A stretch of DNA of 62,916 nucleotides, filler included, from Malassezia furfur (GCA_052055015.1; 38 parts of 38 records of this genome joined end to end with filler, not necessarily neighbours in it); one strand, 5' to 3'; counted from the whole stretch's first letter, positions 1,722-62,746 are shown. A program made the numbers and translations. Notes: generated from the letters alone by a model not told the origin.

Positions 1722-3110
1722 CCGGCGAGCACGTCGAAGCGCTGGCTGCCGCTGTTCAGCAGCACCACGGTCGGGACGTGCGTGTGCCGCGGGTTGGCGG
1801 GCCGCACGATCTCCGGCAGGATGCGCCGCGTGAGCAGCGCGAGCAGCGAGTGGTTCGCGTGCGCCGGGAAGCGGTCGAGGAAGTAGTCCTGCGGCACGAG
1901 GCCGTACAGGTGCGGCAGATCCCACGCACGGGCCACCGCGTCCATCACCGCGCGCACGTAGCGCCCGCGCGCGGTGGAGAGCTCGCCGACGTGCGCGAGG
2001 CCCGCGTGGAAGGCAAAGTTGCGCGGGTTCGCGTCGATGTAGCGCCGCGCGAGCTCCGGCGCGGGCGCCGACACGTTCGAGATGCTCATCCACCCCACCG
2101 TCTCGAGGTACCGCCCGCTCTCGAGCACCATCGCGCGGCGGTCGGGCATGCGGCAGTCGCGGACGTGGGTGTGCCCCGCAAGCATCAGGATGGGCGTGTC
2201 CGGCCAGGCGGCGCGGATCGCGGCGTGCACGGCGTCCCAGCCCGGGTCGCCGGTGACGGGCATGTGCCCCGCGACGACAAACACGTCGACGTGCTGCTGG
2301 CGGAGCGACTCGGTGAACCATGGCTCGCGCACCATCGCGACCGGGTCCTGCACCGTGATGCCCTGCGCGGCGAGGCGGAAGTCGAACAGCACGCCGTACG
2401 CCTGCACGGTGAGGTTCTGGTGCGGCGTCGTAAACCGCGTCCAGCGCGCGCCGATCGGGCGCGAGCGCGGCGCGCCGCCGGGGGTGTCGGGGAGCGAGAT
2501 GTTGACGTTGGAGGTGAGGTAGCGCCCGTGCCCTGTGTGAGTGGGTGGCGACGTACACCGGGGGACAAAGTCGTCGTAGACGTCCTTGGCGACGCTAAAG
2601 TTGTACAGCTCGTGGTTGCCGATCGTGAGCACGTCGTAGTCCGCGAGCGCAAACACCTGGTCGCTGACGTGCCCGTTGACCGCGTAGGCAAAGTTGGGCG
2701 AGGACGGGGGCACCTGCGGGAACGCATCGCTCAGGCCGTTGCCGTCGTGCAGGTCGCCGGTGTCGACGAGCAGCAGGTCGACGCCGCGCTCCGCCGCGCG
2801 GCGGCGCAGGTGGTGCGCAAACGCCACAAAGTCGCCCCAGTCGCCCGAGTAGTTCGGCTCGGGCGGGGAGAGCTTCGTGTGCCCCTGGAACCCTGTGTGT
2901 GAGCGCGCGCAAGGGCAACGTACAGCCGTGGATGTCGGTCGTGTGCAGGATCTGCAGCTGCCCCCAGTGCAGCGGGCGCAGCTGGTCGTCGATGCGCGGC
3001 AGGCGCCCGCGGCCGTGCGCCGCGTCGTCCCACACGTCCGCCGCGCCGTGTGCCGCTGCGACGCCGAGGCACACGGCGCCGACCCAGGCCGCGGCGCGTG
3101 CGAAGCCCAT
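1722..3110 (-). CDS. Secreted calcineurin-like metallophosphoesterase / 5'-nucleotidase (YHR202W-like), 3' partial, 2 introns
   Basis: Signal peptide; HTTDIHGW, DTGDLHDG, IGNHELY, GHMP and GHTH motifs once introns 2893-2923 and 2533-2556 are removed. Confidence 0.88.
2533..2556 (-). other. Spliceosomal intron, 24 nt
   Basis: GTACGTCGCCACCCACTCACACAG; removal gives FVPRWHGRYLTSNV. Confidence 0.8.
2893..2923 (-). other. Spliceosomal intron, 31 nt
   Basis: GTACGTTGCCCTTGCGCGCGCTCACACACAG; joins two frames into TDIHGWFQGH. Confidence 0.92.
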
Positions 3111-3140
3111 GGTGGAGAAGGATCGGGCTACATCGGGACA

Positions 3141-3340
3141 CTACAGGCCCTCGTCGTACAGGTTGCGGCACAGCGCGACCCAGAAGCGCTCAAACACCTC
3201 GTGCGACGGGCTGCTCGACACGCTGGTCTCGTGGTTGAGCAGGAAGGGGAACATCTCGAGCATCGACGTGGCGAACGCCGTCGACGACGTGCGTGCCGGC
3301 GCGGGGCGCGCGCGGCCGGCGTCCGTGCGGCCGTCGGCGG
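3141..3340 (-). CDS. C-terminus of an unidentified protein
   Basis: ..TSMLEMFPFLLNHETSVSSSPSHEVFERFWVALCRNLYDEGL*; genome-typical codon usage. Confidence 0.6.
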
Positions 3341-3440
3341 NNNNNNNNNNNNNNNNNNNNNNNNNNNNNNNNNNNNNNNNNNNNTTAATTAATTAANNNN
3401 NNNNNNNNNNNNNNNNNNNNNNNNNNNNNNNNNNNNNNNN

Positions 3441-5058
3441 CGGCACGGGCCCACGGCGTGGGCGCCCGCCGCGCAACCCACGTCCGCCTCCCCCCGCGCA
3501 GACGACACCGGCGCCCGGTGCGTCGCCGGCAGGCGACGCTTCGACGAACGCGTCGCCGTCGTACATGGCGCGCCCCAATGCGGCCATGTCCTCGTTCACA
3601 CCCGCACTCAGTGCGCAGCAGCAGCAGGCGCTCATGGCACGCGCCATGCAGCTGTCCAAGGCGCAAAATCAGCCATCGTATACGCCGCTCCATGCGCTCT
3701 TCCAGATGGGCTTTGTGTTTGTGCGCAACACGCAGCTGCCCAACGTGCCGCCCGGCGCGGCGCTGGGCGGTACGATCCTGCGCGCTGACGAGGCGGCGGC
3801 GCTCGGCCTCTTGCCGAACCAGGCGATGGCCGCCGCCGCCGCAACAGCGCGCGCCCAAGCGGCGGGCGCTGCGCCTGCGGCGCCCGGTGCGCCATGGCAA
3901 CCGACGACAATGATGCCATACGTGCGCCCGGATGGTGTGCGTCCCGAGCAGCCCGGTGTGCTGCGCATGACGCCCGGCGCCGGTGGCGACAAGAGCGGCG
4001 CTGGCGCCCCAGGGACCGTCGGTGCGCCCGTGTCGACGGTGCTGCTGCCCGGCGCGCCGACCAACGTGCCGCTCGTGCACGGTGGCGCGCCGCCCTCGAC
4101 CAATGCCGTGGGGATGCCCGTCACGACACAAAACACGCGGCTCACCGCGCTGCCCACGCCGGCGACCGAGCCGTACCCGTGGAAGAAGCTGGACGCGCGC
4201 GAAGTCGCCGAGCTACTCGACATCATGCGGCGCGACGCCAAGTTCCAGCCGGTGCTGCAGGCGCAGCAGAAGCGTGCGGACGCCGAGCTGTACGCGCACG
4301 TTGCCCCCGTGCTGCACCCCCCGCCGCCCGATGTGGCGCCGCGGCCCGTGGCATGGTGGGAAAAGTCGGTGCACGAGCCGGCGGCGCCGCGCCTTGCGTC
4401 GACGCACGAGCCGTTCAAGCTGGTGCTGCCTGCACAACGCCAGCGTGCGCTCGAGCAGGGCGTGCGCGGTGTGCGCGCGCCGGTGCCGCTGAGCGGCGCC
4501 GAGGTGGAGCATGTGGCGAATACCCCCGAGACGCTCGTGCCCATCCGGCTGGAGCTGGAGCACGAGCCGTTCAAGCTGCGCGACACCTTCCTGTGGAACG
4601 CCGCCGAGGACGATGCGTCGCTCGAGGCGTTTGCAGTGGGGATCTGCGAGGACCTCGGCCTGCCGAGCGCCGTGTTTGTGTCGCTGATCCGCACCGCGGT
4701 GCAGACGCAGGTGAACGAGTTTGCGACGGCCATGGCGCTGCGGCCACAGGCGGCGGACGCCGATGCGCCCACCGCAGGGGCGCCGCAAGGGCGCGGGACG
4801 CTCACGCCTGCAGCCGAGCGCGCCTGGGCGCAGCTGCGGCGCACGGTGCTCCGACGTGGCGAGGCGCCCGACAGCGAGGACGCCACAGACGCCAAGGAAG
4901 CACCGCCGGTCGTCGACGAGGCGACCGAGCCGGAGGCGACGGACGACGTGAAGACCGAGGCACGGCCCGTGGCCGAGGTGCCACCGGCCGATGCCGCGTC
5001 GGATGCGGCCCGCACCGCCGCCGCCTGTGCCGCCGACGCGAACCGCACCGACGCGAAT
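3441..5058 (+). CDS. SNF5: SWI/SNF subunit Snf5 family protein, partial
   Basis: ETLVPIRLELEHEPFKLRDTFLWN..FAVGICEDLGLP (SNF5 repeat 1) after a long low-complexity N-terminus; Sfh1 not fully excluded. Confidence 0.8.
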
Positions 5059-6707: not shown

Positions 6708-6717
6708 GTGTGGAAGG

Positions 6718-9067: not shown

Positions 9068-10196
9068 ATGCACGCAACGCGTGCGGCGCGCGGCGTGCAC
9101 GGCTTCTTCCCGTTCCTCAAGAAGCACGCGCCCGACGCGTTCCTGCCGATTGCGTCGCACACGGACCTCGCGCGCGCGCGCGTCGCGATCGACGCGACAC
9201 TGCTCACGCAAAAGTTTGTGTACAGCGAGCATGCGAGCGACGCGCGGCACCTCGCGGGCCTGGGCAACGTCGTGCACACGCTGCGCAGCGTCGACGCGGT
9301 GCCGATCATGGTGTTTGACCACCCGACCGAGCGCCTCCCACAGAAGCGCGAGACGAACGAAAAGCGCGCCGCGCAGCGGACGCTCCGCGCGTTTCGGCAC
9401 GCGGTCGAGCAGGAGCGCAGCACGCGTGGATCGCCGCCCAAGCGCCGCTCGTTGAGTCGGCGACGCAGCGCGCGCTGCACGCCGCCGAGGCGGGTGTGTA
9501 TGCGGCGCTCGCCGACGCCTGCGTCGACGGGACGCAGACGCTGCTGGTGTGTGTCCCGGGCGAGGTGCGCGGCGTGCCAGCGACCAGCACTGCGGCGTGG
9601 CTCGGCAAGCGCAGCGCCGAGCTGTGTGTGACGTACGCACGGAGCACGCGCGTCGTGACCGACGCCATGTACCGCGAGGCCATCGCGCTGTGCCGGCGCC
9701 TCGATGTGCCCGTGCTGGTCGTCGGGGACGGCGAGGCACGCGCCGCCGAGGCCAGCGACGTCCACGAGGCCGAGGGCTTCGCCAGCGCGCTCGTCCGTGC
9801 CTCGTATGCGGACATGGTCGCGAGCGAGGACAGCGACGTGCTGCTGTACCACGTGCCGCTGCTTCGCGGCCTCGGCGCGCGGCAGCCGTCGTGCGAGCTG
9901 GTGGATGCGGCGCGTGTGCGCATGGCGCTCTTCCCCGAGCCCGGCGTGCGCGAGGCCGAGGCCGACGACGCGCGCCGCGCGATGCTCGTCCAGTATGCGC
10001 TGCTGTGCGGCACCGACTTTAACCGGACGATTCCCGGGCTCGGCCCGGTCGGCGCGTACCGCGCGGTGTGTACGTACGGCACGGTGGAGCGCCTCCTCGC
10101 GCACACGGCGCATGTGCCGCCGATGCCGCGCGACGCGTACCTCGCGCACCTCGCGGACGCCGCGCGCGTGTTTGAGCGGCCGCCGGCGGTCGCTCA
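9068..10196 (+). CDS. FEN1/XPG-family 5' nuclease (PIN + H3TH), frame break near 9420, 3' partial
   Basis: GVHGFFPFLKKHAP, VAIDATL and VFDH in one frame; HEAEG, SEDSDVLLY and LCGTDF..IPGLGPVGA in another. Confidence 0.8.
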
Positions 10197-15563: not shown

Positions 15564-16991
15564 CTAGCCCAGGATCTTGGTGACGATGCCCGTGCCGATC
15601 GTCTTGCCGCCCTCGCGCAGGGTGAAGCGCGAGCCCTCCTCGAGGGCGATGTCGTGCACCAGGTCGCACACCAGCTCGACGTTGTCGCCGGGCATCACCA
15701 TCGCCTCCTCGGCGTTTTCCGTGCCCGGCGGGTGCGTCAGCGACACGGTGACGTCCGACGTGCGGATGAACAGCTGCGGACGGTACTGCGTCAGTAGGGA
15801 ATACGTACATTGTTCATGAACGGCGTGTAGCGGCCGCCCTCCTCCTTGGTCAGGATGTAGCACTGCGCCATAAACTTCTTCACCGGCTTCACCGAGCCCG
15901 GCACAATCACCACCTGCCCACGGCGCACCTGCTCGCGCTTCACACCACGCAGCAGCGCACCCATGTTGTCGCCGGCCTCGCCGCGGTCGAGCTCCTTGTG
16001 GAACATCTCGATACCGGTGAGCGTCGTCTTCAGCTGGTTGCCCAGGCCGATGATCTCAATCTCGGAGCCTTTGGTGATCGTGCCGCGCTCCACGCGGCCC
16101 GTCACCACCGTACCACGGCCCGAGATCGAGAAGACGTCCTCCACGGGCATCAGGAAGGGCTTGTCGAGGTCGCGCGGCGGCAGGTCGAGCCACGCGTCCG
16201 TCTCGGCCATGAGCTTCAGGATGGCGTTGCGGCCCGTCTCCTCGTCGCGGCCCTCGAGCGCCGCGAGCGCCGAGCCGAACACGATCGGCGTGTTGTCGCC
16301 GTCGAAGCCGTAGGTCGAGAGCAGCTCGCGCATCTCCATGTCGACGAGCTCGAGCATCTCCTTGTCGTCCACCTGGTCGACCTTGTTGACGAACACGACG
16401 AGCTTCTTGATGCCCACCTGGCGCGCCAGCAGCAGGTGCTCACGCGTCTGCGGCATCTGCCCGTCGGTCGCCGACACCACAATGATCGCACCGTCCATCT
16501 GCGCGGCGCCGGTGATCATGTTGCGGATGTAGTCGGCGTGGCCGGGGCAGTCGACGTGCGCGTAGTGGCGGCCGTCCGTCTCGTACTCGACGTGCGCCGT
16601 CGAAATGGTGATGCCACGCGCCTTCTCCTCGGGCGCCTTGTCGATCGACGCATAGTCCACAAACTTGCCCGAGCCGGAGTTCTCGTGCAGCACCTTGGTG
16701 ATCGCCGCCGTCAGCGTCGTCTTGCCGTGGTCAACGTGGCCGATCGTGCCGATGTTCATGTGCGGCTTGGTGCGCACAAACTTGCCCGAGTCGGTGGCGT
16801 ACGCACGCAGGGCGCCCAGCACGCGCGAGCGCAGCAGCGGACGCACCGGCGCACGCGGCGCACGCGGCGCGTGCGTGTGCTGGGCACGCACCAGCGCCGG
16901 CGCAGCGGCGCGCGCCGGTGCGTCCGCTGCTGCGCAGACCAGGCGCCGCGGGACGCAGCGCACGCAGGGGGACAGCACGAGCGACACTCAT
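15564..16991 (-). CDS. TUF1: Mitochondrial elongation factor Tu; 23-nt intron; apparent frame break in presequence
   Basis: [57 protein letters not shown]. Confidence 0.97.
15786..15808 (-). other. Spliceosomal intron, 23 nt
   Basis: GTACGTATTCCCTACTGACGCAG; contains in-frame TGA; removal restores PFMNNYRPQ. Confidence 0.96.
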
Positions 16992-17108: not shown

Positions 17109-18702
17109 CGAGGTGCGGGGCCGAGGGTCGGGCGTGGCGTCCTTGGGCTCCTCCACGCCCAGGCAGCGGTCCATGTGCCGGTTGATCTGCTCGCTGCGCT
17201 GCACCTCGCTCGCACCCGGCTCGACGTGGATCGGCTGGCTGCACACCGGGCACATGTGCACCGGCGCGGCCTGCAGCCATCGCTCGAGCGGCGACGCGTC
17301 GTGCGCACCGACGTCGACGAGCGCCGACGCACGGACGCCTAGCAGGCGGAGCGTGAGTGGGCGGTGCCGCGCGGCGGCCGCCTCGTGCTCCTGTGCCAGC
17401 AGCGAGCGCCCGAGTGCGTACAGCTCGTCGAACGTCGCGACGCTGCGCGGCGCAAGGCTGAGCTGCCGCGTGAACCGCGCAAAGGTGTCGTGCTTGCCGA
17501 CCAGCGCAACGGTGCGCGCGCGGAAGTCGAGGCGCGCGAGGTCCGCGGCGAGCTGCATGCACGTCTGCCGCAGCTGTGCGTCGAGGGCGTCCGGCTGCGC
17601 GGTCGGCGCAAAGGTGTTTTCGCGCCCGACCGACTTGCGCTCCGTGCGCTCCGGGCGGTGGAGGCGGCTCGCGCCGATCCCCAGCGCGGCGGCGAGCAGG
17701 AAGGAAAAGTGGTCCATGCACACGCTGAGCTCGCCGCGCCGCTCCCACAGCGCGCCGCACGTCTGCACGTCGAGCGCATCCAGAATGCGCTCGGTGACGT
17801 GCCCGATGCCCGGCACCTTGCGCACGGGCAGCTCGTGCAGGAACGCCAGGATCGCGTTGCGGTTCGGCGGCACGCGGCACTGTCCGTTGGGCTTGTTCCG
17901 GTCCGAGGCGATCTTGGCGAGCAGCGTGTTGGGCGCGATCCCGACGCTGACGGTGAGCCCCGTGGCGCGCTCAACGTCGGCACGCAGCTGGGCGACGAGT
18001 TCCTCGGCGGTGATGCCCTCGCGCTCGAGCACGGGCGTGACGTCCAGGTACGCCTCGTCGAGGCTGCGCGGCACCAGGTCGGAGTCGTAGCGGCGCAGGA
18101 CGCGCATCACCGCCTCGCTTACGGTGCGGTAGCGCGCCATATCCGCGGGCACGACGTGCAGATCAGGGCACAGCGCACGCGCGACAAACTCGGCCATGCC
18201 GCTGCGGACGCCCAGCGTGCGCGCCTCGTAGCTCGCGGTGAGCAGCACGCCGTGGCCCACGGCGAAACGCGTGCCGCGCAGACGGGGGTCGCGCTGGAGC
18301 TCGACGGCCGCGTAAAACATGTCCATGTCGCAGTGCAGCAGCGTGCGCGACAGATCGCGCTCGCCCTCGAGCTGCGCCGCCAGGCGGTCGGCGCGCGCGG
18401 TGAGCTGCGTGCGGGCGTGGGCGGAAAGCGAGGCGAGCGCCTCATCGCGCCGCGCACGCACACGCGCGATGCGCCGCGTCACGGCCTCGTGCCGCGCGCG
18501 CTGGTTCTCGTAGAACTTGGAGCCGCGCGAGACACGGTGGATGGTGTCGGCGATGCGCGCGTCGTCGTCCGGCGCGAGGCCGGCCTTGTGACTCGAGGCT
18601 GCGTGAGGGGCATCGACGTACGTCCGGCCATGCGCTTGCGGAAGCTCGCGTCGTCCTCGGTGGGCGAGCCTGGCCCGCCGGCCTCGGCCGCCGGCGCGGC
18701 CG
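17109..18702 (-). CDS. POLK: DNA polymerase kappa (DinB, Y family) with UBZ finger, partial
   Basis: AGPSSHKAGL..SRGSKFYEN, HCDMDMFYAAVE, SLDEAYLD, LAKIASDRNKPNG, CPVC..NRHMDRCL. Confidence 0.93.
18599..18621 (-). other. Spliceosomal intron, 23 nt
   Basis: GTACGTCGATGCCCCTCACGCAG; removal gives MAGPSSHKAGL. Confidence 0.88.
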
Positions 18703-22171: not shown

Positions 22172-23725
22172 TGTGGTACGCCGAGGCCATCAGCCGGAGC
22201 TCGCGGCGCAGCTGATCGCGCTCGCGTTCGACGGCGCGGAGCGCTGCGTCCGAGGCCGGCGCCTCGTCGTGCGCCGCGGCGCGCGGCTGACTCGCCTCGT
22301 CCCAGCACGCGAACAGGCGCTGCATCACGACGTCGTCCAGCCGAAACGACTCGGTGAGCAGGTCGAGCACCGAGCGGAACTCTTTCGGCGTGGAGCGCCC
22401 CGAGGCCGACTTGCCCTCCTTCTTGTCCGCGGGGTACTTTTTCGCGAGCTTGCGCAGGAGCGACCTGGGTGAGCGGGGTCCACGTACTGTGCCTCTTTTT
22501 CCTTGGAGCGTGCATTGTTGCGCATCGCGGTGAGGTCGGCGTGCACGGCCGCGAGCTGCGACTGGCGCTGCTCGGGCGAGACGGCGCCGTGCGCAGGAAG
22601 AGGGGTGCTCAGCTGCGTCTGCGCAAGCTGCTTTTGAAGCTGCGACACTTCGGTGCGCAGCGACGCAATGGTATCGGTCGCGCGCGACGTGTCGCTTGGG
22701 GCCGTGTCCGGCGCGTCCGGCGCGTCGGACGGCGCCGCGGAGCGTGCCGCGAGCGCCGCATGGGCCTGCTGCAGCTCGGCGTGCTCTTCTTGCAGCGCCG
22801 CCAGCTGCCGCTCGAGCAGCAGCGTCGACGCGGCGGCGCTGGGCGCGGTGTCGGTCGTCGTGCCGGCGCCCTTGGTCTGTGCCCGTTCCGCGCGCAGCGT
22901 CTGCAGTTCGCGCCGGAGTGCGCCCATCTCGTCGAGGCGCTCGCGGTACTTGACGAGCTGTGCCTCGTGCCGCCGGCTGAGCTCCACGAGCGGGCGCCAC
23001 TCGTCGAGTTGGTCGCGCAGCGCGATCCGCTCGCGCTCGCGCTCGCGCAGCGTCGGCAGCTCGGCGGCCATTTCGCCGTGCTCGTCCACGACGCGCTGGA
23101 GGTGCGCCTCGACACTCGCGAGCTGGTCCTGGTACAGTGTCGCGCGCTCCGTCTGCTTGGCGAGCTCGCGGCGCAGTGCATCGACCTCGTGTGCGTCGGC
23201 GACGAGCGACGTATCGGCGTCCGGCGCCGGCGCCGAGTCGTGTGCGTCGCCGGCGGCGAGCACGCGCTCGATGACGCGCATGAGCACCATCTGGTCGTTG
23301 TACGGGAGCGTCTGCATCGCGTGGATCTGCGCATCGTTGGCCTCGCTCTTGGCGATCACGCCGAGCACCATGCGGAGGAGCGAGGCGAGTTGGGCGTCCG
23401 CAAGGTCGTCTGCGTCAAGGTTGTCCAAGGGCGGTATGGCGTCGTCCCAGTTGAGGACATCCTCGTAGCTGGGTGTTAGGGCATGCTACGCACTAGTGCA
23501 CAAGCTGGCGGTACACCTGGTCAAGGGTCGGCTTCTTGGGCGTGCGAAAGTGCGCCGCGTCGCTGGGTGAGAGCGGGCGACGTACATGCTTGCCAGGACG
23601 GTGAGGAGCGCGCGTGCGTCGGTGAGGATCGCGCGGTCGGCGTCCTGGTCGGCGCGGTCGGTGAGTGTGCCCACGTAGCGCGCGATGGCCGCGAGCTGCG
23701 CCGCGTCGGTCGGCTCGTCGGGCAT
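22172..23725 (-). CDS. HOK1: Hook-family microtubule/dynein adaptor (Hok1-like), 3 introns, 3' partial
   Basis: N-terminal Hook domain (LTDARALLTVLASID..LVHYYEDVL..LLRMVLG..IHAMQTL..QMVLMRVI), long coiled coil, RELRLMASAYH. Confidence 0.8.
22465..22487 (-). other. Spliceosomal intron, 23 nt
   Basis: GTACGTGGACCCCGCTCACCCAG; links two ORF frames (KEAQ|SLLRKL). Confidence 0.9.
23469..23493 (-). other. Spliceosomal intron, 25 nt
   Basis: GTGCGTAGCATGCCCTAACACCCAG; removes a stop, giving LVHYYEDVL. Confidence 0.88.
23563..23585 (-). other. Spliceosomal intron, 23 nt
   Basis: GTACGTCGCCCGCTCTCACCCAG; gives VLASIDAAHF. Confidence 0.88.
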
Positions 23726-32280: not shown

Positions 32281-33714
32281 CTATGGCGCGCGGCGCTGGT
32301 AGAAAAGCAGGTACGCGGGGCTCGGTGTGCCCTCGTTGCACAAGTCGCCCGTGAGCACCTCGCCGGCGGGGACGGCGCGCGCACACGTGTCGTCGATGTG
32401 CACCCAGCCCGAGTCGTCCTGGCGCAGCACCGCCGCGGTGTAGTGCCCGCCGGTCGCGAGGCGCCCGTGGTGGTACACCACGCCAAACAGCGAGTACTCC
32501 GGCGGCGGGCCGGCCATGCGCAGCGGCGCACTCATCGTCGCGGGGTCGATCGTGAGGCGGTGGCCGTACGCGATGGGCTTGCAGCTCTTTTGCACGCCGC
32601 CCACCTCGTCGTACACGAAGCGCTTGAGGTGCAGCACGAGCACGGGGGGCAGCATCTCGATGCACAGCTGCTTGGTCGCGTCGACGAGCGCGCCGCGCCC
32701 GGGCGACCACACGCCGCTGATCTCCTCGGGGACGGTCAGGTGGCGCAGCGCGTCCTCCAGCGTGCGCACCGACGCCGGCTGGATATCGAGCGGCAGCGCG
32801 CGGTACGGCTCGAGCACGATGCTCGTCTTCGAGCCGGGCACATGCAGCACGCTGCGCACCTTGCCGTCGAAGATGCGCGAGATGGGCGACGCCGCGTCGC
32901 GCGTGCCGGCGGTGCGCGTGAGCGACGTCTTGCCCTTTTGGCCGACCTCGAGCCACTCGTCCTGCTCGGGGCTCGTGGGGCGCTGCACCTCGCGCGCCTC
33001 GACGTGCTCGTCGGCGTCCGCGACGGGCGGCGGCGCCTGCGGCGCGCTCGGCGTGTGCCGGTGCGCGGCGCCGAGGCGGCGCTGCGCGCGCTGCTGCGCA
33101 AGCAGCACCTCTTCGTGCAGCGTGCTCAGCACTAGACTAAAGAACTCCTCGGCGTCCTCCTGGTGCCCGAGGTGGAAGAGGTCGAAGCGCTTGTGCAGGC
33201 GCATCGCATCGTACACGTAGTCCGGCAGGATCGGGTCGATCTCCATCTCGAGCAGCGGCGTGTGCGCCACGAGCGGGATCTCGGCGTAGAAGCGGAAGCT
33301 GCGTCAGCCGCACACGTACATGGCCTCGAGCAGCGGTGTGGAGTTCGACAGGTCCTGGGGGAGCATCGCGTGCAGCTCCGTGAGAAAGTTGTACAGCGGG
33401 CGGCAGTACACGAGCATTTGCAAGATCTGCGTGAGTCGCGCCACGTACCGCACTCGCAAAGCACGAGTTGCCCTGGTTCACCAGGCCGACGGGCACGGTT
33501 AGCGGCGCCGCAAAGCGCGTGTGCGCCCCGTCGTACAGCTCGTCGAGCGTGCGCGCAGGCCGTGGCGCGCGTGTGGCGCGGGGCGCGCGCGTCGGAGACG
33601 CGGTGTCTGTGCGCACCGACACCGCGGGGCTGTGTGCAAGCACGGCGGCGCGCGCATTGGGCGCGCGCGGCGTGCCAGAGCCCCACGCGCGCGGCTGCCC
33701 CCACGGGGAGGCGG
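32281..33714 (-). CDS. UBP3: Ubiquitin-specific protease Ubp3/USP10, catalytic domain, 2 introns
   Basis: GLVNQGNSCFASA|ILQMLVYC, GHQEDAEEFF, EWLEVGQK, VLHLKRF, YHHG..GGHYTA. Confidence 0.93.
33299..33319 (-). other. Spliceosomal intron, 21 nt (shortest seen)
   Basis: GTACGTGTGCGGCTGACGCAG; carries in-frame TGA; removal gives TPLLEAIFRFYAEI. Confidence 0.9.
33427..33448 (-). other. Spliceosomal intron, 22 nt
   Basis: GTACGTGGCGCGACTCACGCAG; restores Cys box NSCFASAILQ. Confidence 0.94.
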
Positions 33715-33814: not shown

Positions 33815-35360
33815 CTTCGCCCGGTAGCTCGGCGGCGGTGTCGGTCGCCTCGTCGCTTGCGCAGAGCTCTGTCGCTCCCAGTGCGGCGGTTTCCAGCATT
33901 GTGTCGGCGGCGTCGTCTAAGGGCGTGACGGCCCCTGTGGTGGCCTCGTCGGTGGCTTCGGAGGCGTCGAAGTCGGCTGCGTCGGTGTCGTCTTCGCTGG
34001 CCTCGGTCGCGTCGTCGAAGGGTATTCCGGTGCCATCGGCTGCCGCTTCGAGCGCGTCAGAGGCATCGAAGTCGGCTTCGATCCTTTCGTCGGTGGCATC
34101 GGTGGCGTCGTCGAAGAGCATCCCGCTTTCCTCGGTGGCATCGTCGGCGATTTCGTCTCTGTCGTCGTCGTCGTCGGCGTTTGCCTCGTCCGTTTCGTCG
34201 GTTGCCTCGTCGAAGGGTGTGGCGCCGCCTGTCATTGCTTCATCTCTGTCGTCTCAGGCGTCGGTGTCGTCGGCGCTGTCGTCTTCGGCTTCGTCGATCG
34301 CATCGTCGAAGGGTGTTCCGACTTCGTCGGTTCTGTCGTCGCTGTCGTCGGAGGCTTCGAAGTCGTCGGCTGCGCTTTCGTCGTCGATCTCGTCGATCGC
34401 TTCGTCGAAGGGTATCCCGACGTCGTCGGTCGCTTCGTCTCTTGCGTCGGAGTCTTCGGCCTCGTCGGCGTCGGCCTCTTCCGCTCTTTCTTCGTCGATC
34501 TCGTCGATTGCTTCTTCGAAGAGCGTGCCGTCTTCGTCGGTGGCCTCGTCGATCTCGTCTGAGTCGTCGGCATCGTCGGCTTCGGCGTCATCTGCTCAGT
34601 CGTCGTCGATTTCGTCGATTGCTTCGTCGCAGAGTTCTCCCACCTCTTCGGTTGCTTCGTCTCTGTCGTCTGAGTCGTCGGCCTCGTCTGCCTCGTCGGC
34701 ATCTTCGGCCTCGTCGAACTCGACGGGTGTTGTGCCGGTTCCCGTTCCCACATCTGGCTCGAGCAGCGCCCTTCTGACTACGTCGGGCTCGAGCAGTGCT
34801 CCGTCGTCGTCTGGCTCTTCGAGCAGCGCTCCGTCGAGCTCGGGCTCGTCGAGCAGCGCTCCGTCTAGCTCCGGCTCGTCTAGCAGCGCTCCATCGAGCT
34901 CGGGATCGTCGAGCAGCGCTCCTTCGTCGTCCTCGGGTTCGTCTAGCAGCGCTCCGTCGAGTTCGTCTGGCTCTTCCAGCAGTGCCCCGTCGTCGTCTGA
35001 CTCTTCGTCGAGTGGCTCGAGCTCGAGCTCTTCTGGCTCGTCGAGCGGCGCTCCTACGTCGTCGTCTGACTCGTCGAGCAGCTCCAGCAGCAGTTCGAGC
35101 AGCTCTCCGTCGTCGTCTGACTCGTCGAGCAGCTCCAGCTCGAGCAGCCCATCGTCGTCGTCTGAGTCGAGCAGCTCGCGTTCCAGCAGCAGCTCGAGCA
35201 GCCCATCGTCGTCGTCTGAGTCGAGCAGCTCGCGTTCCAGCAGCNNNNNNNNNNNNNNNNNNNNNNNNNNNNNNNNNNNNNNNNNNNNNNNNNNNNNNNN
35301 NNNNNNNNNNNNNNNNNNNNNNNNNNNNNNNNNNNNNNNNNNNNAGCAGCTCGCGCTCCA
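33815..35360 (+). CDS. Extremely Ser-rich tandem-repeat protein (mucin/cell-wall stalk-like), open at both ends
   Basis: Repeats of about 33-37 aa (SSIASSKGIPTSSVASSL) then decamers SSSAPSSSGS; internal 100-N scaffold gap at 35245-35344. Confidence 0.75.
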
Positions 35361-35648: not shown

Positions 35649-37004
35649 ATGGCAAACACGGTGGACATTGGGAAGTGCGTACCCACCCCCCCGCTGACCG
35701 GCAGGAACAAAAACGTGGACCTGACGGCGCCCACGCCGCAGAACACGCCGCTGAACAATGCGCCGATCGGGCGTGAGCCGCTGTCGCGCCCGACGGTGCA
35801 GACGATCGGCGAAGAAGACCGCGACGAGGACGACGACGAGGACGACGCGCCTGCGCCCGGCGCTGCGGCGGCGGCGGGTGGCGTCGCGGGCCTGCCCACT
35901 GCCGCGATCCAGGGCATGATCCAGGACAAGCTGAACGGGCTCGTGGGCCGCTCGTCGGGCTACATTGAGTCGCTCCCCGACGAGGTGCGCCGCCGCGTCG
36001 AGGGCCTCAAGGGCCTCAACGTCGAGCACCAAAAGATCGAGGCCGAGTTCCAGCGCGAGATCCTGGCGCTCGAGAAGAAGTTTGCGGCCAAGTACGCGCC
36101 GCTGTACGACCGCCGCAAGGAGATTGTGCTCGGACAGATCGAGCCGACCGCCGCCGAGGTCGAGTCCGGCGAGGCGGTCGACCGCGAGGACGACGAGGCG
36201 AGCGAGGACGACGAGGCGAGCGAGAGCGAGGAGGAGGAGCGCGACGCGCCGCGCTCGCTCGCCAACATCTCGATCCGCACCGACGCGCCCAAGGGCATCC
36301 CCGAGTTTTGGCTCACGGCGCTCAAGAACCACGTGGCGCTGTCGGAGGTGATCACCGAGCGCGACGAGGGGGCGCTGACGCACCTGATCGACGTGCGCCT
36401 GCGCTACCTCGACACCGCGCCGAACGCGAGCGCGGGCCAGGACCAGCAGGGCTTCCAGCTGGACTTTGTGTTTGCGCCGAACGACCACTTTACCAACACG
36501 ACGCTGACCAAGACGTACTTCTACGCGAACCAGGTCGGCTTCTCGGGCGACCTCGTGTACGACCACGCGGAGGGCACGACGATCGACTGGAAGTCGCCCG
36601 AGGCGAACCTGACGCACCGCGTCGAGACCAAGAAGCAGCGCAACAAGAACACCAACGAGACGCGCACCGTCAAGCGGTTAGTCCCGACCGAGTCCTTCTT
36701 CAACTTCTTTGCGCCGCCCAAGCCGCCCAGCGACGAGGACGACGAGGACGACGAGGAGCTCGACGCGCTCGAGGAGCGTCTCGAGCTCGACTACCAGATC
36801 GGCGAGGACCTCAAGGACCGCATCATCCCGCACGCGGTCGACTTCTTCACCGGCAAGGCGCTCCACTACGAGAACCCCGACGAGTGGGACGAGGACGAGT
36901 TTGGCGATGAGGACGACGACTACGACGAGGACGACGACGAGGACGACGATGCGCCCCGCCGCGGCGGCGCGCGCCAGGACCCGCAGGAGTGCAAGCAGCA
37001 GTAG
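35649..37004 (+). CDS. NAP1: Nucleosome assembly protein 1, complete, 1 intron
   Basis: APTPQNTP, LVGRSSGYIESLP, KGIPEFWLTALKN, ESFFNFF, LELDYQIGE; ends QECKQQ*. Confidence 0.97.
   Translation: MANTVDIGKCVPTPPLTGRNKNVDLTAPTPQNTPLNNAPIGREPLSRPTVQTIGEEDRDEDDDEDDAPAPGAAAAAGGVAGLPTAAIQGMIQDKLNGLVGRSSGYIESLPDEVRRRVEGLKGLNVEHQKIEAEFQREILALEKKFAAKYAPLYDRRKEIVLGQIEPTAAEVESGEAVDREDDEASEDDEASESEEEERDAPRSLANISIRTDAPKGIPEFWLTALKNHVALSEVITERDEGALTHLIDVRLRYLDTAPNASAGQDQQGFQLDFVFAPNDHFTNTTLTKTYFYANQVGFSGDLVYDHAEGTTIDWKSPEANLTHRVETKKQRNKNTNETRTVKRLVPTESFFNFFAPPKPPSDEDDEDDEELDALEERLELDYQIGEDLKDRIIPHAVDFFTGKALHYENPDEWDEDEFGDEDDDYDEDDDEDDDAPRRGGARQDPQECKQQ
35675..35704 (+). other. Spliceosomal intron, 30 nt (in frame, no stop)
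   Basis: GTGCGTACCCACCCCCCCGCTGACCGGCAG. Confidence 0.8.
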
Positions 37005-40492: not shown

Positions 40493-40712
40493 TTACTTGG
40501 ACCCCCGTGTCTCCTTAAACAGGACATGCCGCTTGACTGCGTGAGCGGCGCGCACGTACCGACCGGGTCGTATTTCATCATGCTGAGCTTGTCCGCGATA
40601 CGGAGGCGGCGCGTGGTGTACATGTACCCCGTGCCTGCGGTGGACACGAGCCGCGCGATGATCACCCTGCGTCAGACGCGCGCACGTACCGAGCCTTGGA
40701 TTTGGCCGCCAT
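40493..40712 (-). CDS. MRPL39: Mitochondrial ribosomal protein bL33m, complete, 3 exons
   Basis: Spliced: MAAKSKARVIIARLVSTAGTGYMYTTRRLRIADKLSMMKYDPVVKRHVLFKETRGSK*. Confidence 0.95.
40537..40559 (-). other. Spliceosomal intron, 23 nt
   Basis: GTACGTGCGCGCCGCTCACGCAG; restores KYDPVVKRHVLFKE. Confidence 0.95.
40667..40689 (-). other. Spliceosomal intron, 23 nt
   Basis: GTACGTGCGCGCGTCTGACGCAG; restores KARVIIARLVS. Confidence 0.95.
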
Positions 40713-40761: not shown

Positions 40762-41911
40762 ATGGCGGCGCGTGCACCGGCGCGCGAGCCGCGCATCCCG
40801 CTGGCGGTGGTGGATGCGCCGACGCAGCGCTTCTATGCGGCGGCGCTCTTTGGTGGTGCACAGGTGTGGAAGTTTTCGCGGATCGCTGCGGTGCACATGT
40901 GGGGTGCGCCCGCGCCCGTGTGGGAGCCGACGACCTTGTCGCGCGCGCTGCTCCTCGACTTTGCGCTTGTGTACGCCGTGTGGTGGCTCGCAATCCCGAC
41001 GGGCGGCGCGCCTACGCCTGCTTCGAGCGGCGTAGCGCCCGGTGTGCAGGCACGCGCGCCGCGCCGCGCGCTTACGACGCTCGACTACGTACTGGCCTTC
41101 TTCGCGCTGGCCGTCGTCGACGTCGTGGTGCTGGGCCGCGACACGCACCTCGGCCCTGTGGCGTCGTCGGCGCTCACGACGGCGCTCGCGCCCGTGCTGT
41201 CGATGGTGGGCCTCGATCCCGCGGTGCATCTTGGTCTCGGTGGGCACCGCGTGCGCGAGCGCGACGTGGTGCGTCCGTGGACGCACCTCACCGGGCAGCA
41301 CACGGTGCACCTGCTGCCGCACGGCACGGCGCGCCTTGCGCCGGAGCGTGTGTGCCAGTGTGTGGATGCAACTGCGCCCGTGGCGCTCCCCGTGGTCTTT
41401 CACCATCTCGAGCCGGCGCTGCTCGAGTACTCGGTGACGGACGTGGAGCGCGGCACGAAGCGCATGCTGACCGTCAAGGCGCCCAAGACGCGCGCGCTGC
41501 TGCGCGACGCGGTCGCGTATGCGCCGGACGCCGACGACGCGCCCGATGTGCCGCCGCACGCGCGCGGCCTGTCGCTCCAAGAGCGCAAGCGCCTGCGTGC
41601 CGCGGCGCGCGAGCGGGCGCAGCGCACCGACGACGGCGAGACGGTGCACGAGCTGCGCCTGACGCAGCCCGGGCTCGTGCGCCTCGAGCGCGTGCTGGAC
41701 AAGAACCGCAACGAGGCGCAGCTCGTCGACGCGCCCGATGTGCTGCTCGTTGCGTGCCCTGCGGCGTCGTTTGTGCACACAACGCCCTCCGACTACTGCC
41801 CGAACGACGACGGGGCGCTGGCCGTGCGTGTCGCAGGCGTCGCGCCGCTCGAGCTGACGTACACGCACGTCGCGCGCGACGGCGCCGCGCCCACGACCCA
41901 CACGCTGTCGC
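40762..41911 (+). CDS. POM152: Nuclear pore membrane protein Pom152, N-terminal part
   Basis: IPLAVVDAPTQRFY..QVWK, HLTGQHTVHLLPHGTARL, PGLVRLERVLD, VACPAASF. Confidence 0.85.
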
Positions 41912-42117: not shown

Positions 42118-42163
42118 TGCTCGTCCCCCCTGGTGTGCGCGCAGAACAGAGACTAACGTGCAG

Positions 42164-43643: not shown

Positions 43644-45169
43644 TGGGCTGCGGCGCGCGCCGCGGGGCTCGGCACCGCCAGCATCGAGTCGCTTGCGGAT
43701 GCGGCCACGGAGGCGGCACGCTGTGTGCCTGCGACCGACATCGCCACACACGCCCTGCCCACCGACGCCATGCTCGCGCCAGGCACCTCGTCCGTTCGGT
43801 GCGCACCCACGGTGACCGCAGACGCGCGCGGTACGTGCACCACTCACACAGCCTTCCTCGCCGACGTCGCTTCAGATCCACGCATCGAGGCCGTCGTGTC
43901 CCACATCCTGCAGACCTACCTGCGCCCGCTCTTTGCGCAGGCCGCCCAGCACAGCCGTGTGCAGGCCTCGGGCCGCGCGGCGCACGGCGCGCGTCCCCTT
44001 GTGTGGGAGGACGAAAAGCCCGTGTGGGACGACGGGTCAGGTGCGCCCAACGTGCTCGCATGGTGTGTGCACGCGCTTGCGCACGGGGCGCCGGATGCAT
44101 GGGAGCGCGTATGGCCCTTGGTCGTGCCGCCGACCATGGTGCTGCTCGACGCGCCGGGCGCCTACCCCAAGCTGCTCGGCGCATGCGTCGCGAGCGAGAT
44201 GCTCCTACCCGAGGCGCCCGCGCGCGTCTCTGCCGAGCTGCTGCGCCGCACGGGCCTCGCCGAGCTGCTCGACGATGCGCTCCACAGCGCACTGCACCAC
44301 CTCTCGGACGCCGAGTACGGCGCAGTACTGCTCAGTGCCACGCTCCAGGCCCGCTACGGGCTCGTACGTGCGCTGCATCCCACCGTGGACGCGACACCCG
44401 AGGCGTTCGAGGCGTACATGCGCCTCTTTTCCGACGGCATCCTCGCGGCGCTCTCGTACTGTGCGCCGCCCTCGGCGTCCGCACCGGCGCTCCGTGCGCC
44501 GCCCGGCACCGCGCTCGGATCCGCACGTCTGCACCATGCGCTTGCGGGCGTCGCGTGTGCGTGGGCGTGCGTGCTGTGCCCCGTCCTGGGCACACCGGCG
44601 CTCCAGTTCTGGAACGCGTTCCTTGACTGGGCCGCCGGGTGGATTGCGCACGCCTTTGAGGCTACTACCACCCTCGACACGGTGCCACGGCGCTCAATGA
44701 CCAGCGTCGTCAACGAAATCACCCAGCAGGACGCGGTCGGCGGCGATGCGCCCGACGCTGGCGCGGCACGCGACTGGGCCGAGGCGGCCCATGTCCTGCT
44801 TGCCAGTGTGCTGCAGACGCTGCACGGCGCTCAGGCGATGGCCGCGCTCGTTGCCGAAGTCGATACGGCGCCGCCTGCTCCACCCGCGCTCGCGATTCCG
44901 CCGCGCCTTCCGGGCCTGCACATGTATGCGAACGAGGTGGTCTGTGCATCGGCCCAGTGCTACGTCAGCCTCACGTCGCTGGACGTGCGCGGCGACGGCG
45001 ACGCACGCGACACGATCGCTGTCCTCCTTCGCGAGCTACGTACGCTGTGTGCGATGCTGCACACGCTCGATCCTGCGCTTGACGAGGTACGTTGCTCGCC
45101 CCCCGCGCTCGCTGACCCCCAGACCTGGGACGCCCTCCACCGCTGGGCCGCGGTCCGTCCGCTGGTGGC
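43644..45169 (+). CDS. TTI2: TTT complex subunit Tti2-like, partial
   Basis: ILQTYLRPLF..SGR, KPVW, WPLVVPPTMVLLD..KLLG, LLRRTGL. Confidence 0.72.
45087..45122 (+). other. Probable spliceosomal intron, 36 nt (in frame, no stop)
   Basis: GTACGTTGCTCGCCCCCCGCGCTCGCTGACCCCCAG; consensus match only. Confidence 0.7.
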
Positions 45170-46892: not shown

Positions 46893-47253
46893 CACTCGAC
46901 TCGGGCCACGACGCAGCCGCGAGGCGCCGCGCGCCTTTGGACGCGGGCAGCAGCACGGGCTTGCCGTCCGGGCGCCAGAGCCATGCGTGCCCGTCGGAAA
47001 GCAGTGCAATGTCCGCGAGGCCGGGCACGACGCACACCGCGTCGATGGCGCGCCGCGTCACGGGCGCGGTCGTCGGCGCCGCCCACGCCGCGTCGGCGCG
47101 CGGCACCGCATACGTGGCGACGGCGCCCGACGAGGTGCCGACGTACAGCGTGTCGTCTGCGTTAGTGTGGGGCGACGCACCTGTGCACGCCAGCGCACGC
47201 GCGCCGTCCGGCAGCGCACACGCCGCGGCCTGCGCCGCATAGACGCCGTCCAT
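46893..47253 (-). CDS. CNH-domain protein (Vps3/Vam6 family), N-terminus
   Basis: LYVGTSSGAV..RRAIDAVCVV..LLSDG..ASKGA. Confidence 0.65.
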
Positions 47254-50133: not shown

Positions 50134-51140
50134 GACGCCCGGTGCGTCGGGCGATGCGACGCCGCGCGCGGGCAAGGCGCCGGCGGTCGACGACGCGCCC
50201 GACTCGAGCGAGAGCACCGAGGGCCGCGCGGGGCGCAAGCGGACGCCCGCCAAGGGCGAGAAGGACAACAAGACGGGCCGCCGCAAGATCAAGATTGAGT
50301 TTATCGACGACGACTCGCGGCGGCACATTACGTTCAGCAAGCGCAAGGCGGGCATTATGAAAAAGGTGCGTGGCCACACTGACCCAGGCGTATGAGCTCG
50401 CGACGTTGACGGGCACGCAGGTGCTGCTGCTGGTTGTGTCGCAGACCGGCCTGGTGTACACGTTCACCACGCCGAAGCTCGAGGCGATCGTCAAGCAGCC
50501 CGAGGGGCGCAACCTGATCCAAGAGTGCCTCAATGCGCCCGGCCCGAGCGACGAGGCGGGGCCCAGTACGCAGGCGCCGCACGCCGGCGACCTCTACGCC
50601 AAGGAGGAGGGCGACGAGGGCGACGAGGGCGAAGAGGACGAGGAGGACGAGGAGGACACGTCGCTGCTGCACCACCCCGACCTGGGCCTCACCGCCCAGG
50701 CGTTCAGCACGAGCCCGATCAGCGAGACGGCGCCGTACGGTGCGCCGCCCGGCGCGCCGCTCTTCCACCCCGGGTGGGGCATGCCCGGCATGGCCCCGCG
50801 CGCCGAGACCAAGCAGCAGCACCTCAAGCGGCGGCGCACGCAGCCGAACCTCGCCGGCCCCGGGCTGCAGCAGCCGCCGGCGCCCGGCGCGGGGCAGGCG
50901 GCGCCGCAGGCGTACGCGAGCATGACGATGCCGCCGATGCCCGTCGAGCGCAACCTGAGCGAGCCGCACCTGCTCGCGAGTGGGCTGCCGATGTACTATG
51001 CGCAGCCGCTGGGCGGGGGCGAGGAGCGTACGCCGCACCTCGGGCATGCGGCGCCGGTCGCGCCCGAGCTGCCGCACCCGCACCTCTCGCCGCGGCACGA
51101 GTCCGCCGCGGCGGGGCACGCGCCTCCGCCGTCTTCGTAG
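50134..51140 (+). CDS. MCM1: SRF-type MADS-box transcription factor, 5' partial, 1 intron
   Basis: GRRKIKIEFIDDDSRRHITFSKRKAGIMKK|AYELATLTGTQVLLLVVSQTGLVYTFTT. Confidence 0.96.
50366..50387 (+). other. Spliceosomal intron, 22 nt
   Basis: GTGCGTGGCCACACTGACCCAG; restores GIMKKAYEL. Confidence 0.96.
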
Positions 51141-51218
51141 AGGGCCCCGCGGCCCGCTTGTTCGATACCCCGTTGTACCGCGCGCGGCGTCCGCCGCGCG
51201 AATCACGTGCTTCTCACC

Positions 51219-51648
51219 ATGGCCGACGTGTGGATTGGGCGCAAGCGATGGACGTGCACGTACTGCCAGGTGACGATCAACGATGACGTGCCCTCGCGGC
51301 AGCACCACGAGAGCGGCATGCGCCACAAGAACAACGTCGAGCGCGCGCTGCGGGGGCTGTACAAGGACACGGCCGCCCAGCGCCGCGAGGCCGAGCGCCA
51401 TGCGCGCGAGATTGCCGAGATCGAGTACGCCGCGGGCCGCGCGCACCGCAAGCAGGACGGCGCGGAGGCGGCGCAGGTACAGGGAGGCGCGGGCGACGCG
51501 CCCGCGCCCAAGGCCTGGGCGCCCTCGGACAAGATGGCGACCTACACCACCGCAAAGGCGCTCGGCGTGCGCGACGAGGACGAGCAGGCGTGGCAGGCGC
51601 AATTTGCGCGGCGCAAGGCGGCCGCGCGCGTCGGCGAGTGGGAGACGG
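51219..51648 (+). CDS. U1-type (matrin) zinc finger protein, WBP4/FBP21-like, partial
   Basis: MADVWIGRKRWTCTYCQVTINDDVPSRQHHESGMRHKNNVER. Confidence 0.82.
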
Positions 51649-54174: not shown

Positions 54175-54874
54175 ATGTACAACGGCATCGGGCTACAGAC
54201 TGCCCGCGGCAGGTGCGTGCCCCCTTCTCACGCAGCGGCACCAATGGTTATGTCCAGCGGAATTTGTCCAGCATCCGCCCGCGCGATGCGCCGCGCGCGC
54301 AGCCCCAGGAGAAGGCGCGCATTTTCGAGCCAGACCAGCGCATCCTCGACCACGAGCGCAAGCGCAAGATCGAGATCCAGTGCATCGAACTGCAGGACGA
54401 GCTCGAAGAGCAGGGGTACGTTGCACAACTCACGCAGCCTTCCGGACGACGAAATTGAGGCACGTGTCGACGCGCTCCGTGCGCGCCTGCGCGAGCGCCA
54501 AGACGCTGTGTGCCCATCCCACCAAGAGACCAAGAGCCTGCGTCCATCTGATACCCACGCGCTAGGCGCAGCCAAGAAGCTCGAGCGCGAAAAGATGGAG
54601 CGTGCACTACGGATACGCCCCGATTACGTCGAGGGTGAGGCCTTCTCGCCCGAGATCCAGGAGCGGCGCAAGATGGAGCGCAAGGAGGAGCGTGCACGCC
54701 TCCACGAAGAGGCCCAGGCGCGCTGGGAGCAGCGGCGCACGGAGCGGGCCGAGCGCGACGTGCGTGTGGACCGCCAGCCAGACATAGACGACCCGCGCGT
54801 GTCACGGCCGCCGCGCGACGCGCGCGATCGCGGGTGGGACTCGCCGCGCGACCATGGCTGGCCTGCGCGGCGGT
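54175..54874 (+). CDS. CWC21: Pre-mRNA splicing factor Cwc21, 2 introns, 3' partial
   Basis: Spliced [50 protein letters not shown]. Confidence 0.96.
54213..54235 (+). other. Spliceosomal intron, 23 nt
   Basis: GTGCGTGCCCCCTTCTCACGCAG; restores [10 protein letters not shown]. Confidence 0.96.
54416..54437 (+). other. Spliceosomal intron, 22 nt
   Basis: GTACGTTGCACAACTCACGCAG; gives [11 protein letters not shown]. Confidence 0.92.
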
Positions 54875-59466: not shown

Positions 59467-59481
59467 CGGCCATCCTTTTGT

Positions 59482-60903: not shown

Positions 60904-61016
60904 GTAGCACACGCGCAGGGCACAGTCAGTGTCTTGGGTTGCTATTCGCATCATACGTAGCTCACTACGGTGGCGCACGTGCGCCCATCCCGCAGGAAAA
61001 CAAGAGGGCGCGGCCG

Positions 61017-61310: not shown

Positions 61311-61410
61311 NNNNNNNNNNNNNNNNNNNNNNNNNNNNNNNNNNNNNNNNNNNNTTAATTAATTAANNNNNNNNNNNNNNNNNNNNNNNNNNNNNNNNNN
61401 NNNNNNNNNN

Positions 61411-62307
61411 CGCGCCCGGCGCCGCGCGCGCGCGGCCCGGCGCAGGCCACAGCGCACGCTCCCAGGACGCGAGCGCCGGCGCCTCGTCCCAGTCCTCGTC
61501 ATCGCCGTCAGACGCCGCGGTCTCTTCGAGCGCGGTAAAGAAGCTCGCAAACAGCACCCCGAGCGACCACATGTCCGCTTGGTACGCGTCGTAGCCGCGC
61601 GTCAGCGCAAACAGCAGCTCCGGCGCACGGAACGCGCCGGTGCCCACCTCGCTGATCATCGCGCGCGGCGCCCCCGCCTCCGCCTGGGCATACGCCGTGG
61701 TCTCGGGGAAGGCGGGCGACCATGCGACGCCCAGGTCGATCAGCCGCACGCGGCCGTCCGTGCCGAGCATCACGTTCGCCGGCTTGATGTCGCGGTGCGC
61801 GATGCCTTCCGCATGCAGGTAGGCCACAGCGTCGAGCAGCTGGCGCAGCGCACCGCCGACAAACGTCACGTACGTCTCGCCCGCCAGCAGCGCTCCCCAC
61901 GCCGCAGGCGCATCGGCGGCAAACGGCGGCGCATGCGGCGCAAACTGCGGCGCGTCCAAGATCGCGGGGAGACCCACGGGGTACAGCGGCATCGCGAGGT
62001 GGTGCACGGTGGTGAACGCGTCCGGTGTCTCGGTGAACGCGGCGAGCAGCGTCGCGATATGCTCGTGCCGCGTCGCGCGCAGCAGGGCCACTTCGCGCTC
62101 GACGTCGTGCGGCGCGTTCTGCTCATCCACGTCGACGTGCTTCAGACACAGCCAGCCACGCACGCCGCCGTGCGTCTCGAGGACGGGCGTGGCGGCGTGC
62201 ATCGGCGCCTTGCTCACCACCGAGCACAGGCCGTGGCCGACCGGAAGCAGCAGGTGGGCCTCGAACGCGTCGTCAAGCCTATCTAGCCGGCGCGGTAAGC
62301 ATGCCAC
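61411..62307 (-). CDS. Ser/Thr protein kinase (divergent CDK/CAK-like), start unresolved, 3' partial
   Basis: VGHGLCSVV, CLK, PHDVEREV, IAHRDIKPANVM, LIDLG, VGTGAFRAPELLF, DMWSLG. Confidence 0.88.
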
Positions 62308-62326
62308 TCACGGGGGACGCAACCAC

Positions 62327-62746
62327 CTACCACATGTCGGAGGCGCCCGTACGCTTCCCAAAGTACTGCGTGTGAGTCGGCCGACGTACCTCGTCCAGCA
62401 GCGCAAAGAACGCCTGCTTGTCCGCCTCGGTAAACTGCGAGTACGCGATATGCGTCGTCGACGGCGGCGCGAATGCGGGCGCAGACGGCTGCGCGACCGC
62501 CGTAGACGCGGGCACCGTGTGCGTCTGCGGCATGGACGCCATGTCGGACGGAAGCGGCGGCATGTGCCGGTGCTGCGGCGCGCCGGCCATAGTCTCCGCG
62601 GCACTGCCCGCGCCGCGCATCGACGCAAGCCGCTCCTCGTACGAGGACTTCATCGAGCGGCTACCACGCAGCTTGTTAATGTGCTCCTCGCCGAAGCGGT
62701 CGAGCTTCTCGTTGAGGTCCAGGCGCAATTTGTCGAACGGCGGCAT
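62327..62746 (-). CDS. Small uncharacterised protein, 1 intron
   Basis: MPPFDKLRL..SQFTEADKQAFFALLDE|YFGKRTGASDMW*. Confidence 0.7.
   Translation of the reverse strand: MPPFDKLRLDLNEKLDRFGEEHINKLRGSRSMKSSYEERLASMRGAGSAAETMAGAPQHRHMPPLPSDMASMPQTHTVPASTAVAQPSAPAFAPPSTTHIAYSQFTEADKQAFFALLDEVRRPTHTQYFGKRTGASDMW
62366..62389 (-). other. Spliceosomal intron, 24 nt (in frame, no stop)
   Basis: GTACGTCGGCCGACTCACACGCAG. Confidence 0.78.

Follow-up and report, generated by a model that had tools for sequence, protein, structure and literature searches.

Microsporidia have introns of a 23-nucleotide (nt) class. Introns of 16-17 nt in mikrocytids, of 18-21 nt in chlorarachniophyte nucleomorphs and of 15-16 nt in heterotrich ciliates such as Stentor have been described (PMC10245619, PMC9505925). 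For the yeast genus Malassezia, a review credits all haploid species with compact genomes and very short introns (PMC7426719). In M. sympodialis ATCC 42132, Zhu et al. 2017 give 5350 manually curated introns with a mean of 30 bp, 99% of them supported by RNA-seq, to be compared with a mean of 65 bp, 48% support and far fewer introns in an earlier annotation based on homology only (PMC5389616). For M. restricta, 2150 introns are reported in the 7.33 Mb of strain KCTC 27527, averaging 37.2 nt (median 30.0; PMC9241646), and a minimum intron length set by the annotators at 20, then at 15, on account of the tiny introns of this species (PMC6473144); a MAKER annotation of M. globosa gave a mean intron of 76-79 nt (PMC4634964). 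Here, we analyzed a 62,916-nt stretch of Malassezia DNA, hereafter named the window, in which 17 segments of 21 to 36 nt interrupt genes. To judge from their sequence, these segments are very probably spliceosomal introns of the U2 type (GT-AG) in a skin yeast belonging to the M. furfur clade, and would occupy the lower end of the size regime known for the genus.

The window is a pseudo-molecule of 62,916 nt, composed of 38 blocks of 1506-1621 nt that are ordered by falling length and separated by 37 identical spacers (the first at 1622-1721, then every ~1.7 kb), each made of 44 N, TTAATTAATTAA and 44 N. Its GC content is 66%. An internal gap of 100 N is also present within one contig, at 35245-35344. 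As the contigs are unlinked, genes that adjoin in the window do not adjoin in the genome. The 17 introns are distributed over 11 of the 38 contigs, and the identical architecture found on these unlinked pieces indicates a genome-wide property. A preliminary description of the window had proposed a genome-wide system extending over 2533..62389. This stands if the window is taken as a scattered sample of the genome, but not as a contiguous locus, since 38 contigs are joined in it. Its list of 17 GT-AG introns was exact for every coordinate and length, each intron being on the same strand as the gene around it, and the five protein motifs it had reported as restored by splicing were all recovered: NNYRPQ in EF-Tu, GIMKK/AYEL in the MADS box, the USP Cys box, RGSGTNGY in Cwc21, and a complete 57-residue bL33m.

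The introns measure 21 nt (one), 22 nt (three), 23 nt (seven), 24 nt (two), 25, 30, 31 and 36 nt (one each), with a median of 23 and a mean of 24.6 nt. Their 5′ hexamer is GTACGT in 13 cases and GTGCGT in 4, the branch-like pentamer is CTCAC (10), CTGAC (6) or CTAAC (1), and all 17 finish with NCAG. The putative branch A is placed 5 nt from the 3′ end of the intron in 12 cases and 7 nt in the 5 others, and the spacer between hexamer and pentamer, GC-rich, measures 6-9 nt in 14 of the 17. The composite architecture can be written GTACGT/GTGCGT + 6-9 nt + CTSAC + 1-3 nt + CAG. The hallmarks expected of the U2 type, namely GT/AG ends, an extended 5′ consensus and a yUnAy branch motif, are found in 17/17 sequences, and the extended 5′ splice site and branch consensus of the U12 type in 0/17, all having GTRCGT and CTSAC.

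We estimated how often such a signal would arise by chance. Briefly, matches to GTACGT-N3-24-CTNAC-N1-4-CAG and to its GTGCGT version were counted in the window and in 100 dinucleotide-preserving shuffles of it. The GTACGT pattern gave 14 matches for 0.03 expected, and the GTGCGT pattern 6 matches for 0.49 expected, numbers that 0/100 shuffles reached in either case. Together, the 20 matches (~0.5 expected) include all 17 listed introns and three additional candidates. A scan with the same consensus up to ~200 nt brought no plausible intron longer than 36 nt, 20 of its 24 matches being of 36 nt or less. The four longer ones were dismissed: two use a known acceptor with an upstream GT, and two are antisense within the Tti2-like gene. 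All 17 introns are on the coding strand of genes recognised by Pfam or by coding signal. Using windows of 40 codons, the frame with the highest GC content at third codon positions (GC3) agreed upstream and downstream of the intron in 12/17 cases, for ~6 expected. A search of the whole window against Rfam returned 0 families.

Is exact removal of these segments supported, gene by gene? Homology answers for 12 of the 17 introns, frame, coding signal or open reading frame (ORF) for 4 (18599, 22465, 23469 and 23563), and the motif only for one (45087). In a UBP3/USP10-like deubiquitinase (minus strand), a 21-nt intron (33299..33319), whose retention would bring an in-frame TGA, is followed by a 22-nt intron lying within the USP Cys box (33427..33448), removal of which links NSCFASA to ILQML. 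The spliced product aligns gap-free at both junctions with 8 of 10 aligned homologs, and four Malassezia-like metagenome loci (L001-L004, ~60% protein identity) have uninterrupted coding DNA at both points in 4/4 cases. At the sequence level, this comparison is the cleanest proof of the predicted 21- and 22-nt introns.

Profile matches that break off at a donor and resume at the acceptor are equally precise. In the mitochondrial EF-Tu gene, the Pfam GTP_EFTU_D3 profile stops at position 29 upstream of a 23-nt intron in domain 3 (15786..15808, minus strand) and resumes at position 30 downstream of it. An Mcm1/SRF-type factor has its MADS box interrupted by a 22-nt intron (50366..50387, plus strand), where the frame switches; the SRF-TF profile covers positions 1-22 up to the donor and 23-48 from the acceptor, so that the MADS box is unbroken once spliced. 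The Cwc21 gene (plus strand) has two introns. The first, of 23 nt, is 38 nt past the ATG (54213..54235), with agreeing GC3 phases, and its removal yields the conserved N-terminus including RGSGTNGY; the second, of 22 nt, is within the cwf21 domain (54416..54437), the profile running from 1 to 23 upstream and from 24 to 43 downstream in the shifted frame. The gene for mitochondrial ribosomal protein bL33m (minus strand) also has two introns of 23 nt, intron 1 at 40667..40689, 23 nt past the ATG, and intron 2 at 40537..40559. The exon between them corresponds to positions 2-36 of the 47 of Ribosomal_L33, and the spliced coding sequence is a complete L33 of 57 residues; like that of Cwc21, this product is canonical from end to end. 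These two bL33m introns are the closest pair of the collection, with 6 of 8 spacer bases in common, but ~1 such pair would be expected among 136 by a hand estimate, and we rejected, on this estimate only, the idea of recent copies as unsupported.

In the 5′-nucleotidase-like (Metallophos) gene (minus strand), an intron of 24 nt and GTACGT type (2533..2556), in frame and free of stops, coincides with a gap of structure PDB 3c9f aligned to the read-through translation, at query residues ~111-119. Another of 31 nt in the same gene (2893..2923), also of the GTACGT type, comes directly after the metal-binding DIHG motif and switches the coding frame. Removing it links TDIHG to the conserved W-F-Q-G-H, and the Metallophos match resumes downstream. 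Near the start of NAP1, a 30-nt intron (35675..35704, plus strand) is in frame without stop; the spliced N-terminus is gap-free against 8 of 11 homologs, and two homologs with an 8-residue insert at this place read as if the intron had remained unspliced. Finally, a 24-nt intron (62366..62389, minus strand), again in frame and without stop, interrupts the gene of a small conserved protein 12 codons before its end. LLDE/YF is contiguous in 6 of 11 cluster representatives, and the 5 others run on as EV[RS], that is GT.CG. read as codons, and look unspliced there.

The four introns supported at the level of the frame are not multiples of three, and their excision produces ORFs continuous from an ATG. 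That of the DNA polymerase kappa-like gene, of 23 nt and GTACGT type, is 10 nt past the likely ATG (18599..18621, minus strand); the GC3 phase agrees on both sides, and Pol kappa homology begins 2 residues past the acceptor of the continuous spliced ORF. The three others are in a coiled-coil gene (minus strand) with a weak, sub-threshold match to Pfam HOOK. Its 23-nt intron of the GTACGT type at 22465..22487 combines GC3 agreement, a frame switch and a continuous ORF upon removal, and here, as at 18599, the GC3 signal shifts as predicted. The 25-nt intron at 23469..23493 (GTGCGT type) lies 3′ of a 69-nt exon, and the 23-nt intron at 23563..23585 (GTACGT type) 5′ of it. At 23469, the upstream frame meets a stop at the donor, and a frame of 380 codons opens at the acceptor; the middle exon has 22 codons open in the predicted phase, and excising both introns leaves a single ORF from the ATG. 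The last intron of the list, of 36 nt and GTACGT type, is near the 3′ end of the Tti2-like gene (45087..45122, plus strand), in frame and without stop, and is recognised by its motif only. Searching Pfam with the short exons that flank 18599, 23469, 23563 and 45087, as well as the candidate at 43831 (see below), at E up to 10, gave only weak matches without meaning.

Comparison with relatives sheds light on both the origin of the DNA and the state of public gene models. We assign the sequence to a Malassezia of the M. furfur clade, because the spliced EF-Tu matches the M. furfur CBS9595 model (P0001) except in the N-terminal leader and at the intron, and because NAP1 shares 96% identity with that of M. 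brasiliensis, the next matches being other Malassezia. At the EF-Tu junction, the CBS9595 model is devoid of the four residues YRPQ, and it is one of only three exceptions among 120 homologs, [YF]xPQ being found in the 117 others. A second CAG is present 12 nt downstream, so that this model corresponds to an intron of 35 nt (15786-15820, minus strand) and not of 23 nt. In NAP1, the NCBI model of M. brasiliensis has an insert of 8 residues (C-V...L-T-G-R) at the intron position, and in the USP gene, that of Malassezia sp. CBS 17886 has 11 additional residues in the Cys box, beginning with V-R and finishing with C-Q. Both inserts are read, on their sequence, as translated introns. The nearest named NCBI Malassezia model was found to be wrong exactly at the intron in all 3 genes for which named homologs were compared (EF-Tu, NAP1 and USP), as foreseen in the preliminary description, which had predicted that gene finders would miscall such genes. 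Six other named Malassezia models of NAP1 are correct at this site.

Similar anomalies are seen in other homologs. Inserts or frameshifted stretches that start with V-R, Y-V or V-S are present at the intron positions of the window in P0244 and P0246 (NAP1) and in P0131 and P0123 (USP), and stretches of the same kind are found at the position of intron 62366 in P0365, P0368, P0371, P0372 and P0374 (small protein). We interpret the inserts of relatives as footprints of unspliced orthologous introns, the readable lengths of which imply ~24-39 nt. The metagenome loci L001-L004 (local GC 46-49%, positions ~2860-3000) have no intron at either USP position, which implies either a gain of these introns on the furfur side or their loss in the other lineages. 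The M. furfur genome was annotated with the Augustus web server after training on M. restricta proteins; the annotation passage of the paper mentions no RNA-seq, and the word "intron" occurs 0 times in the paper (PMC9040865). The main consequence of our observations concerns annotation quality: the errors of the models pass on to any work on orthology, structure prediction or proteomics that relies on these proteomes.

We propose the following scheme for the removal of these segments, deduced from their signals. Nearly all bases would serve as signal. The 5′ splice site takes up 6 nt (GUACGU or GUGCGU) and, beyond a spacer, the branch site CUSAC takes up 5; only 4-6 nt (NCAG) then remain up to the 3′ end, so that a polypyrimidine tract would have no room. 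Splicing would proceed by the two canonical steps, with branching at the A of CUSAC. The distance from the 5′ G to this A is 15-18 nt in 14 of the 17 introns, so that lariat loops of ~16-19 nt, and of up to 29 nt in longer introns, would be formed. The acceptor would be the first AG, at a fixed distance of 5 or 7 nt past the branch A. In 3 of the 5 introns of the 7-nt group, a second A is available at the 5-nt distance, and we speculate that the spacing between branch and AG may be even more uniform than these two values suggest. Exact excision restores either conserved protein sequence or an open frame.

Three pattern matches were not part of the preliminary description. A 21-nt candidate of the GTACGT type (43831..43851, plus strand) is in frame in the Tti2-like gene. 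Two others, of the GTGCGT type, are uncertain: one of 30 nt (41269..41298, plus strand), in frame in a POM152-like gene, between the Pfam matches TMD_POM152 and Ig-like_Pom152_1, and one of 24 nt (47157..47180, minus strand), with a strong GC3 signal downstream and no Pfam match in its region. A weaker intron-like segment of 31 nt, GTGTGC...CTAAC...CAG, is found upstream of a MYND-finger gene (42133-42163, plus strand). In an XPG-like nuclease gene, a frame switch is present at 9400-9450 (plus strand), with no GT-AG or branch signal nearby, and may correspond to an assembly indel or to a non-canonical event. The motif scan was also applied to L001-L004, where its matches were too few and too ambiguous to compare lengths between species; an 18-nt match conserved in L003 and L004, considered as an even shorter intron, was rejected as coding, L001 and L002 aligning through it gap-free. 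Lastly, a zf-U1 protein is encoded at 51141-51647 (plus strand), on the contig of the MADS-box gene and ~100 nt downstream of it; among solved structures, its best relative is that of human WBP4, a protein of the spliceosomal B complex.

Several observations weigh against the reading of all 17 segments as introns of the regime known for the genus. Only frame, GC3 or ORF reasoning bears on 18599, 22465, 23469 and 23563, and only the motif on 45087. The GC3 phases disagree at 5 of 17 introns, of which 4 adjoin exons shorter than 40 codons and the fifth, 54416, precedes a long low-complexity exon. Five of the 17 lengths are multiples of three, 4 of these without an in-frame stop, and retention of these 4 is compatible with the sequence taken alone. 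With a median of 23 nt, the window falls short of the mean or median of 30 published for the genus, so that identity of the two regimes is assumed. Moreover, the introns are known here from DNA and comparison with homologs, and branch use is deduced from the same data. Depletion of stop-less introns whose length is a multiple of three has been described in Paramecium; no sign of a similar depletion was seen in our small sample (n=17). Some of these segments might be short coding insertions that match the motif by chance, chiefly 45087-45122, but also the candidates 41269-41298 and 43831-43851, all three being free of in-frame stops. Some chance matches to the motif do occur, with ~0.5 of the GTGCGT type expected per window, and the 18-nt match of L003/L004 did turn out to be conserved coding sequence. 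However, 45087 and 43831 are of the GTACGT type, for which 0.03 is expected per window, and the three other stop-less introns of this class (2533, 35675 and 62366) all behaved as introns, homology favouring their removal, whereas nothing beyond the motif favours removal at 45087. Coding insertions are therefore an unlikely explanation, even for the few segments concerned. That the interruptions would be assembly errors or frameshifts of a fragmented draft has hardly any plausibility: the contigs are indeed only 1.5-1.6 kb long and the draft highly fragmented, and the frame switch near 9400-9450 occurs without intron signal, but random indels would not bring along a composite splice signal of 15 nt 20 times, and each time on the coding strand, and relatives bear unspliced footprints at the same positions.

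A different question is whether these introns go beyond what the genus is known for. In its strongest reading, the preliminary description implies that the spliceosome of this lineage is specially adapted, and that its introns form a regime as yet undescribed in fungi and distinct from what is known in Malassezia. The window median of 23 nt, compared with the published 30 of the genus, and a putative branch A 5 or 7 nt before the 3′ end, without pyrimidine tract, go in this direction, as do the silence on introns in PMC9040865 and the fact that we found no analysis of splice signals or branch geometry of Malassezia in a literature collection of limited extent. Against it, the review already attributes very short introns to all haploid species of the genus (PMC7426719), a curated mean of 30 bp, as quoted above, necessarily includes many introns in the 20s (PMC5389616), and the annotators' minimum of 15-20 (PMC6473144) allows for such sizes. 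The lengths of 21-36 nt are compatible with this published range, but shorter. In addition, the window encodes Cwc21 and the WBP4-like zf-U1 protein, a weak hint that the machinery is not a reduced one. We consider this strong interpretation improbable. The core of the earlier interpretation holds, with real spliceosomal-type introns in a fungus, Malassezia, on unlinked contigs and with miscalled genes, but its novelty was overstated, very short Malassezia introns being in print (PMC7426719, PMC5389616, PMC9241646, PMC6473144). The phenomenon is already known for the genus; what may be unpublished is the 23-nt mode, the fixed distance between branch and AG, the lineage-specific USP introns and the errors of furfur-clade models. 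A bolder proposal, for which we see some but rather little likelihood, is that introns of the M. furfur clade are as small as a full-sized fungal spliceosome can possibly handle, with a 23-nt mode, 15-18 nt from 5′ G to branch A, and an AG quantised at 5 or 7 nt. The quantised distance and the missing pyrimidine tract would imply that a fixed ruler, and not recognition of the U2AF type, selects the 3′ splice site. If this were true, Malassezia, which is culturable and transformable, would lend itself well to the study of splicing with minimal introns, and the public proteomes of the clade would hold systematic small indels at intron sites.

Compared with known systems, the U2-type introns proposed here are closest to those of other Malassezia. 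With M. sympodialis, they have in common the genus, a compact genome and GT-AG introns; unlike in that species, where the mean is 30 bp, introns of the window average 24.6 nt (median 23), and density is lower, with 17-20 introns in 59 kb. Density is similar to that of M. restricta (2150 introns in 7.33 Mb), which belongs to another clade of the genus. As in nucleomorphs, mikrocytids and Stentor, lengths fall in a narrow range near the physical floor, nearly all bases are signal, and sharply looped lariats are implied. Those systems, however, belong to protists, to relict nuclei or to parasites with reduced genomes or cells, and in several of them the spliceosome is itself reduced, whereas the present introns are found in a free-living, culturable basidiomycete yeast, have a clear yUnAy branch motif, and remain above the known minimum. 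A culturable fungus with introns of 21-25 nt and a 5-nt distance between the putative branch A and the AG would be a convenient system to study splicing.

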